From IMG/VR virus record IMGVR_UViG_3300042517_000935: a DNA stretch of 16,302 bases; one strand, given 5' to 3'. This stretch comes from a virus. The notes below the pieces were generated by a model. It was not told the DNA's origin. It did no database searches and worked only from the letters and a program-made list of their open reading frames with translations. The position numbers and the translations under genes are program-made. Of this stretch, positions 13,437 to 14,391 are shown piece after piece (positions within the stretch are counted from its first letter, which is position 1; each line of letters starts with the position of its first letter).

Positions 13437-14183
13437 ATGTTCGTCAACAACAAATACCTCACATGGTATATCAATCTGATTGCCCATGCTCAATCACGTA
13501 TAATCCAAGGTGATGTTTATAGAGAGAAACATCATATCATTCCCAAGTCCCTTGGTGGTAATAATGAGCCAGACAATATTGTTGTTCTAACTGGAAGAGA
13601 ACATTTTTTGGTGCATAAACTGCTGACTAAATTTACAACCGGCTCTTATCAGCACAAGATGACTCATGCTCTATGGAGAATGATCGGCCCAAAAGACCAG
13701 AGAGATAGATATCGAGTTTCGGCTGGTGAATATGAGAAAATCAAATCAGAGAATATCAAGGCTTTGAGCGAGTCACACAAAGGAAAGATCTCTCCGGCCC
13801 AAATAGCCGCCAACACTCGCAGAAGGGGGCAACCCGCGCATAATAAAGGTAAGCCTAGGTCTAGGTCATCTATAGAACAAATGATTGAGACCAGAAGGAG
13901 CAAAAATGCAGGCAAACCTATTGGTGCCAAAATGAATCTTACTGAAGAACAGCGAGCAAAACGTAGAGAAACCTTGGCCAAACACAGCCCAACTGCAGGT
14001 GAAGAGAGACCCAAATTTCACACAATCTTATACAATACAAAAACTCATGAGCAATTAGAGACTACTCATATGAAGAAAACTTTGGCCTCTCTCGGAGTTA
14101 ATGGCAGACAGTTTTACTCAGGTAATAGTGGTTGGATAATTAAAGAAAAATGGTCTATCAAAACACACAAACGTATTATCTGA
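13437..14183 (+). CDS. HNH homing endonuclease with NUMOD3 motifs, intact paralog (248 aa).
   Basis: REKHHIIPKSLGGNNEPDNIVVLTGREHFLVHKLL is an HNH motif. SHKGKISP and AHNKGKPRS are NUMOD3-like. C-terminal DNA-binding region present. SD AGGAG upstream. Confidence 0.85.
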   Translation: MFVNNKYLTWYINLIAHAQSRIIQGDVYREKHHIIPKSLGGNNEPDNIVVLTGREHFLVHKLLTKFTTGSYQHKMTHALWRMIGPKDQRDRYRVSAGEYEKIKSENIKALSESHKGKISPAQIAANTRRRGQPAHNKGKPRSRSSIEQMIETRRSKNAGKPIGAKMNLTEEQRAKRRETLAKHSPTAGEERPKFHTILYNTKTHEQLETTHMKKTLASLGVNGRQFYSGNSGWIIKEKWSIKTHKRII

Positions 14184-14187
14184 ATAA

Positions 14188-14391
14188 ATCAGCGGGGCAG
14201 ATTTCGTTTTTGTCAGTAGTAAATTGATTATTGAGTTGGATGGCACCCATCACAGAACCAGAGCTGACCTTGATGCTGTTAGGGACTCTCATCTCTCTTC
14301 AAAGAGAGGATATACAGTATTGAGAATAAGTCATGCTGAATATAAGAAAGGCACCAGGATTGCGGAAATCAAGAATTTGTTGGGTATATGA
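14188..14391 (+). pseudogene. Remnant of a DUF559/Vsr-like (PD-(D/E)xK) endonuclease domain. C-terminal ~65 aa only, no start codon, +1 frame relative to the HNH gene and immediately after it.
   Basis: Hand translation ISGADFVFVSSKLIIELDGTHHRTRADLDAVRDSHLSSKRGYTVLRISHAEYKKGTRIAEIKNLLGI* matches the DUF559 core yivDF...rlviEvDG.qH.....D..RD..L...GyrVlRf...ev. A TAA at 14185-14187 precedes it in frame. Confidence 0.55.

Follow-up and report, generated by a model that had tools for sequence, protein, structure and literature searches.

A start-less DUF559 endonuclease remnant behind an HNH gene in a phage tRNA cluster, very probably the residue of an endonuclease gene replacement

Free-standing homing endonuclease genes of T4-like phages are known to take one another's place at a locus, with SegH and Hef standing where mobC and mobE would be (Sandegren et al. 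2005, cited in PMC2988022). The locus described here resembles these cases in that unrelated endonuclease families occupy one intergenic slot with conserved flanks and polymorphic presence. It differs from them in that the displaced gene has left a datable 3' relic, in that the junctions lie at the boundaries of the invader's ORF and in that one conserved leader precedes both occupants, which are here of the HNH and the Zn-ribbon/DUF559 type; moreover, it is known from sequence alone. A second parallel is T4 SegB, a free-standing homing endonuclease located inside a tRNA gene cluster (PMC2330249, PMC2988022; also PMC13096335). The HNH gene of the present locus likewise sits among phage tRNA genes and its flanks look co-converted. 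However, SegB is a GIY-YIG enzyme with a demonstrated cleavage site and demonstrated homing. Co-conversion around T4 endonucleases (PMC2988022) is also what a 1266-nt block of identical sequence around the HNH gene resembles. As for the displaced gene, I-Bth0305I (EDxHD family, PMC3239194) and the DUF559 protein 3HRL share with it a Vsr-type nuclease core and a D...E-x-D...H signature. Unlike the intron-encoded I-Bth0305I, the family found here is free-standing and carries multiple Zn ribbons, and the copy at our locus is a relic; the E-D-x-H-D motif of the EDxHD family is absent from it, and E-L-D-G-T-H-H is found instead.

In the life-cycle model of Goddard and Burt, homing endonucleases invade, become fixed, degenerate and are lost. 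An intact HNH gene (copy 2), a TAA-interrupted paralogue (copy 1) and a truncated DUF559 gene on the same stretch of DNA are in keeping with such a cycle, but loss would occur here through overwriting by a competitor and not by mutational decay alone. This is endonuclease turnover of the type known in T4-like phages, and it adds no new mechanism. The locus nevertheless provides a well-resolved snapshot of homing-endonuclease turnover, with junctions mapped to a few nucleotides and alleles available in public metagenomes: “before” alleles (contigs L029 and L030), “during” alleles (the present stretch and L013) and “after” alleles (L014, L017 and L018). In addition, it draws attention to free-standing Zn-ribbon + DUF559 endonucleases as an uncharacterised family associated with tRNA-Gly(UCC) genes of phages.

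The window, that is the whole stretch of DNA analysed (16,302 nt; IMG/VR virus record IMGVR_UViG_3300042517_000935), represents an uncultured phage population; 10 metagenomic contigs from different samples are 97.8–99.9 % identical to it. All the sequences compared are metagenomic contigs. The part of interest reads as follows:

13207-13293, minus strand: tRNA-like gene, left boundary of the slot (Rfam tRNA 26.3 bits, below the gathering score of 29)
13374-13436, plus strand: leader common to HNH and DUF559 occupants, ending at the ATG (hairpin at ~13383-13406; Shine-Dalgarno AGGAG at 13427-13431)
13437-14183, plus strand: putative free-standing HNH homing endonuclease gene, copy 2, the presumed invader (248 aa, ATG to TGA, PHROG 655)
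14184-14191, plus strand: right junction, including the remnant-frame TAA at 14185-14187 (homology to L029 starts at ~14192)
14188-14391, plus strand: start-less 3' remnant of a DUF559/Vsr-like endonuclease gene, 67 codons and TGA (Pfam DUF559, family HMM, identity to L029)
14398-14428, no strand assigned: perfect 14-bp hairpin between the endonuclease slot and the convergent tRNA-Gly gene (-24.4 kcal/mol, z = -5.5)
14437-14513, minus strand: non-canonical tRNA-Gly(UCC) gene, right boundary of the slot (MFE cloverleaf, anticodon loop CUUCCAA)

The segment 14188-14391 is, with high probability, the non-functional 3' relic of a resident free-standing endonuclease gene of ~281 aa, whose first ~214 codons have given way to the HNH ORF. 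The resident gene would have combined an N-terminal Zn-ribbon DNA-binding region with a C-terminal DUF559/Vsr-like PD-(D/E)xK nuclease, and would have held a defined expression slot in the tRNA cluster, consisting of leader, ORF, hairpin and convergent tRNA-Gly(UCC) gene.

The presumed invader at 13437-14183 encodes a putative homing endonuclease in an intact reading frame that closes with TGA at 14181-14183. Its product matches PHROG 655 (“homing endonuclease”) with an E-value of 1.4e-35; the matches to Pfam HNH (19.4 bits) and HNH_5 (20.3 bits) are both weak and below the gathering scores. The HHIIPKSLGG...N...EH motif is kept among the orthologues, of which five full-length clusters (243–249 aa, 54–64 % identity) cover the query to 100 %, and one C-terminal position, KTGERLI*/KTHKRII*, is common to all of them. 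PF04480 occurs in none of the 120 matches listed for this protein. At the DNA level the gene does not vary among 10 contigs of different samples, and a scan of IMG/VR with it returned only two distant loci. Its presence at the orthologous locus is sporadic, as seen when the window is compared with L029/L030, L017/L018 with L028, and L014 with L031.

The label “copy 2” given to this gene in the initial annotation is apt, since an HNH paralogue, 51 % identical over 146 aa, lies at 5995-6483. This copy 1 (5995-6733, plus strand) has an in-frame TAA at 6481-6483 (codon 163), past which homology in the same frame to an intact 254-aa orthologue in L023 runs to 6726. The usual A/G-rich spacer and hairpin come after the ancestral stop at 6731-6733. 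Copy 1 thus looks like a decaying endonuclease gene. A reassigned stop codon is unlikely here, given that the codon is TAA and that ORFs of 467–856 aa read through with table 11.

Four nucleotides after the HNH stop, the initial annotation had recognised a DUF559-like reading frame in the +1 frame, lacking a start codon and preceded by an in-frame TAA. Both observations are correct: after TAA at 14185-14187 there are 67 sense codons (14188-14388) before the frame ends with TGA (14389-14391), and the translation reads ISGADFVFVSSKLIIELDGTHH...LLGI*. The suggested HMM search of this translation yields a significant match to Pfam DUF559 (PF04480; 44.1 bits for a cut-off of 20.6, E 2.1e-11) over profile positions 46-95 of 109. 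No ATG or GTG occurs near the start of the remnant; the sole start listed is an internal TTG at 14224, which falls within the LIIELDG motif, 3' of the first catalytic Asp, and has no Shine-Dalgarno sequence. With a family HMM derived from 23 full-length relatives, the remnant corresponds to positions 230-293 of 293 (E 1e-34). Since the match covers only these positions, about 78 % of the gene is gone; the loss includes all of the DNA-binding region and one third of the nuclease domain, at its N-terminal side. The core motifs ADF, IELDG, THH and VRD are present, on the nearly invariant columns D212, E223, D225, H228/H229 and R239/D240. Missing are the nearly invariant columns S170, E173, F176, W179, L180, G191, F198 and G209 of the relatives, and with them the nearly invariant S-x-x-E-x-x-F-x-x-W-L helix (SYMERTF), as well as any Zn ribbon. 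Because it has no start codon, no conserved helix and no DNA-binding domain, the remnant is most likely inert, and the proper annotation for 14188-14391 is that of a pseudogene fragment and not of a gene. A tblastn search of phages with the remnant gave one weak match only, in an Aeromonas phage.

Relatives of the remnant define a distinct family. When 1.84 billion representatives were searched exhaustively with the remnant by HMMER, 203 matched at E<=1e-3. In most of the best 150 of these 203, including all the strongest, the matching part forms the C-terminus of a protein of 220–340 aa, and a minority are short ORFs of ~50–160 aa; the alignment to the relatives begins at residue 4 of the remnant (“ADF”). 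The intact counterpart P0283 was reached by way of this search, followed by a search with P0121. Family members carry two to four Cys-rich Zn-ribbon modules at the N-terminus, then the nuclease domain, which after its helix runs G-W-A-D-F-V-F...L-I-I-E-L-D-G-T-H-H...R-D...R-G-Y-x-V-I-R-I. The initial description of the remnant as the C-terminal two-thirds of a DUF559 domain needs a caveat, as the extent of the Pfam match is no measure of what was lost: intact relatives too match the Pfam profile only from about position 33-46, so that it is the comparison with these relatives which proves the truncation. None of 40 proteins of the family contains an HNH domain and all carry Zn ribbons. In the PDB, the DUF559 protein 3HRL (family profile, E 1.3e-7) is the sole relative with a solved structure; I-Bth0305I and Vsr were detected by neither single-sequence nor profile searches, and besides 3HRL there was a weak match to PvuRts1I.

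The third endonuclease of the window (15283-15957, plus strand) had been noted to share the DF...IE.DG core. This is not apparent by BLASTP (E=30) but emerges at the profile level, where hhalign aligns its product with the DUF559 family across Zn ribbons and core (probability 98.7 %, E 4e-16) and pairs ADFVF with PDFVV and IIELDG with EIEIKG. It is a distant paralogue with a classical E-x-K motif, having E-I-K where the DUF559 family has E-L-D, so that the remark holds at the superfamily level. Strain L001 (9686-10585) instead has a variant of 299 aa, which either replaces the third endonuclease or extends it; the sequences diverge from 15464 onward.

Synteny with phages lacking the HNH gene, a comparison proposed at the outset, finds an intact related gene at this position in L029, L030, L028 and L031. 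The first two belong to the window's own lineage, L028 and L031 to two other lineages. In L029, the gene encodes P0283 (281 aa, Zn-ribbon + DUF559), whose last 64 aa are identical to the remnant in 62 of 64 positions. Upstream, window positions 12843-13437 align with L029 1198-1784 (89 %), the last ~65 nt up to the ATG being base-perfect. Downstream, the alignment resumes ~9 nt past the HNH stop (~14192), window 14192-14439 matching L029 2431-2678 with 94.4 % nucleotide identity. Nothing aligns between these two flanks. As the alignments reach the ATG on the left and start from ~14192 on the right, the 755 nt at 13437-14191, essentially the HNH ORF, stand for codons 1 to ~214 of the 281-codon resident gene. 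The flanks in L029 thus support the original suggestion that an HNH cassette displaced the 5' part of an older Vsr-like gene. L030 also has an intact 281-aa DUF559 gene in the slot and keeps the window's backbone order at 76–80 % nucleotide identity (MVP-like protein, PP-loop ATPase, proteins of 244 and 54 aa, saccharopine dehydrogenase). Elsewhere, L028 (DUF559) and L017/L018 (HNH) have a common Aldolase_II neighbour with 80–85 % amino acid identity, and the flanks of L031 (DUF559) and L014 (HNH) are 93–96 % identical at the nucleotide level; the members of both pairs differ in the occupant only. An assembly chimera at the junction is unlikely because 10 independent contigs carry the identical junction. 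A megablast search of INPHARED phages with 12600-15300 gave no match, and a scan of IMG/VR with the neighbouring saccharopine dehydrogenase found no relative.

The boundaries of the slot are conserved beyond the window's lineage. On the left, the 3' half of the tRNA-like gene (13207-13293) is 97 % identical to L013 7717-7749; the gene has an encoded CCA end and is preceded on the minus strand by a near-consensus sigma-70-like promoter (TTGACA-16-TATACT, 13337->13310). The leader is 85–94 % identical upstream of HNH genes (L013, L014, L017, L018, L022) and DUF559 genes (L023, L028), even among phages whose HNH proteins share just 54–68 % identity. On the right, the hairpin at 14398-14428 is a probable bidirectional terminator, with equivalents 3' of the occupant's stop in L013, L014, L017, L018, L022, L023 and L028. 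The convergent tRNA-Gly gene has its own promoter (TTGACA-17-TATAGT, 14557->14529), and its cloverleaf is common to seven orthologues, with compensatory changes in 14 of 21 pairs. At the equivalent position, ARAGORN reports a tRNA-Gly(tcc) in L012, L013, L017, L023 and L028. The window's own copy (14437-14513) is missed both by default ARAGORN and by Rfam; its T-loop reads CGCGCUA instead of UUCGAAU and its D-loop is devoid of GG. The same non-canonical type is present in L013, L023 and L049.

The occupants of the slot fall into three states:

Intact DUF559 gene: L023, L028, L029, L030, L031
HNH gene with DUF559 relic: window (67 codons), L013 (33 codons, family HMM positions 261-293)
HNH gene alone, its stop directly before the hairpin: L014, L017, L018

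L022 may belong to this last state: its HNH gene has no visible relic, but the contig ends 77 nt past the gene, inside the downstream tRNA gene. An empty slot was not found among the loci examined. The HNH loci form a graded series of relic length, from 67 codons in the window to 33 in L013 and none in L014, L017 and L018. The L013 relic is 74–77 % identical in nucleotide sequence to the intact genes of L023 and L028 and 52 % to the relic of the window. Since it is cut at a different codon and is closer to L023/L028 than to the window relic, replacement appears to have occurred at least twice independently.

DUF559 genes are found next to tRNA-Gly(UCC) in other phages as well. At L012 5383-6278, an intact DUF559 gene ends 8 nt from a tRNA-Gly(UCC) gene. 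In L049, a distant AT-rich phage, a start-less DUF559 3' relic (FYFPDKNLIIELDGSQH...) lies at 2495-2689 and recurs in L050-L052; a terminator hairpin is located upstream of it, and there is an overlap between its stop and a non-canonical tRNA-Gly(UCC) gene, at the 3' end of the latter. Because the pairing of DUF559 with tRNA-Gly(UCC) is seen in L012 and L049 as well, it is widespread.

How the HNH ORF came to take the place of the resident codons can be pictured from the position of the junctions, the left one at the shared leader and ATG, the right one 1–9 nt after the HNH stop. The shared leader may have served as homology for the left crossover. The right joint would be illegitimate, and one may conjecture that it was favoured by A-rich microhomology; a candidate is the A-rich AAAAAGAAAAATGG of the DUF559 gene, a stretch similar to the A-rich trailer that comes after HNH stops. 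Repair of a double-strand break initiated by the HNH enzyme (homing) would have copied its ORF into the DUF559-occupied allele, or at least favoured the replacement. Since then the relic would have been no more than untranslated sequence at the 3' end of the HNH mRNA, located before the terminator hairpin, and may be heading for deletion. The proposed life cycle accordingly leads from DUF559 alone via HNH with relic to HNH alone, the window being an intermediate. Between strains, the block 13207-14472 (1266 nt) is 100 % identical and its flanks differ by 7–15 %, so that it looks like a recent exchange or co-conversion tract. In the comparison of the window with L001 and L006, this block consists of the tRNA-like gene, leader, HNH gene, relic, hairpin and half of the tRNA-Gly gene; the adjoining sequence is either 7–15 % different or unalignable (12609-13055).

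Direct replacement has to be weighed against other routes to the same arrangement. The HNH cassette could first have settled in tandem before an intact DUF559 gene, both genes having a leader of their own, and a later deletion could then have taken out the stretch between the HNH stop and the middle of the DUF559 gene. The two independent relics, in the window and in L013, start 0–9 nt from the HNH stop, which would fit deletions bounded by the need to keep the HNH gene intact, and tandem endonuclease genes do exist: in L023 the DUF559 gene is followed by a different HNH gene of 203 aa. Among the loci examined, however, no HNH gene of the copy 2 family stands beside an intact DUF559 gene and no leader is duplicated; moreover, this route takes two events where direct replacement takes one, and we regard it as unlikely. 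Far less credible is the alternative offered by the initial annotation (“a fusion being lost”), in which one protein would once have combined both nucleases, HNH and DUF559, until a frameshift or stop split it. All it has in its favour is that the two reading frames abut, 4 nt apart. The five full-length HNH orthologue clusters (243–249 aa) span the entire query and end with the same final residue, DUF559 (PF04480) is in none of the 120 listed HNH homologues nor HNH in any of the 40 DUF559-family proteins, and L029 displays the state before the relic, an intact DUF559 gene and no HNH gene. In addition, a fusion by frameshift is impossible, since both frames are closed by the sequence TGA-A-TAA. 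The fusion can be rejected with near certainty. A programmed frameshift joining HNH to the remnant is ruled out by the same TGA-A-TAA.

A further possibility is that the C-terminal DUF559 piece still functions, either as a peptide whose translation begins at an internal or non-canonical codon, or because selection keeps it as a homology arm or an RNA element. The relic frame is indeed open over 67 codons, start-less C-terminal DUF559 pieces recur beside tRNA-Gly(UCC) in L013 and in the unrelated L049-L052, and ORFs of ~50–90 aa encoding the DUF559 C-terminus are present in the protein library. Of the 12 differences between relic and L029, 10 are synonymous and 2 non-synonymous, a bias that continued selection would also explain. 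With more distant intact genes, pS is 0.84–0.98 and pN 0.24, and the changes between the window and L013 relics are again mostly synonymous, including Ser TCT/AGC and Arg AGA/CGT. Recent truncation of a gene that had been under selection accounts for this bias more simply: as the differences from intact genes are mainly synonymous, the divergence would have accrued under protein selection, before the truncation. Within the population, no difference is seen at 13207-14391 across the 10 contigs. Against a retained function speak the absence of ATG, GTG and a Shine-Dalgarno sequence, the position of the sole TTG (14224) after the first catalytic Asp, and the loss of the conserved N-terminal helix and the DNA-binding domain. 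Moreover, the relic is shorter in L013 and missing from three other HNH loci. A functional piece is thus highly improbable, and replacement of the resident gene by the HNH ORF, with an inert relic left behind, is by far the preferred reading.

A more speculative extension, to which we give little credence at present, is that the HNH enzyme may specifically cleave DUF559-occupied alleles in this landing slot, and that DUF559 may travel with a non-canonical, cleavage-immune tRNA-Gly(UCC) allele. If true, two unrelated nuclease families would compete for a landing slot made up of leader, ORF, hairpin and tRNA-Gly(UCC), one parasitising the other. Targeting of DUF559 alleles by the HNH enzyme would then explain the independent relics cut at the boundary of the HNH ORF, and an immune tRNA-Gly(UCC) would explain why DUF559 genes or relics lie beside tRNA-Gly(UCC) in very distant phages (L012, L049).

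Other tRNA genes of the window have unusual features of their own. Those for tRNA-Leu(UAA) (15031-15170, minus strand) and tRNA-Pro(CGG) (5722-5846, minus strand) contain insertions of 51 and 48 nt, respectively, in the anticodon loop, and were found with ARAGORN -i only. The insert holds a T-arm-like hairpin, is too short for a group I intron and is 85–90 % conserved between phages whose tRNA exons are ~65 % identical. The orthologous tRNA-Leu genes of L014 and L017 lack it. Inserts of 40–90 nt are present in many further tRNAs at related loci, and similar “enigmatic” tRNA introns have been described in Lak megaphages (10.1101/356790). Inspection of the tRNA-Leu insertion by eye for a bulge-helix-bulge motif showed a symmetric 3x3 internal loop in the predicted fold instead. 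The “207-aa ORF” at 14565-15188 overlaps tRNA-Leu, and the real ORF is probably one of 146 aa (14565-15005).

The window also carries unusual cargo for a phage. One of its proteins, of 856 aa, has the shoulder and repeat domains of the Major Vault Protein (E 4e-19; 6804-9374, minus strand); the others are a PTH2-type peptidyl-tRNA hydrolase, a PP-loop ATPase and a saccharopine dehydrogenase; the coordinates recorded for this cargo are 6804-9374 on the minus and 3797-4264 on the plus strand. Its relatives L029 and L030 additionally encode a homologue of release factors (PCRF/RF-1).
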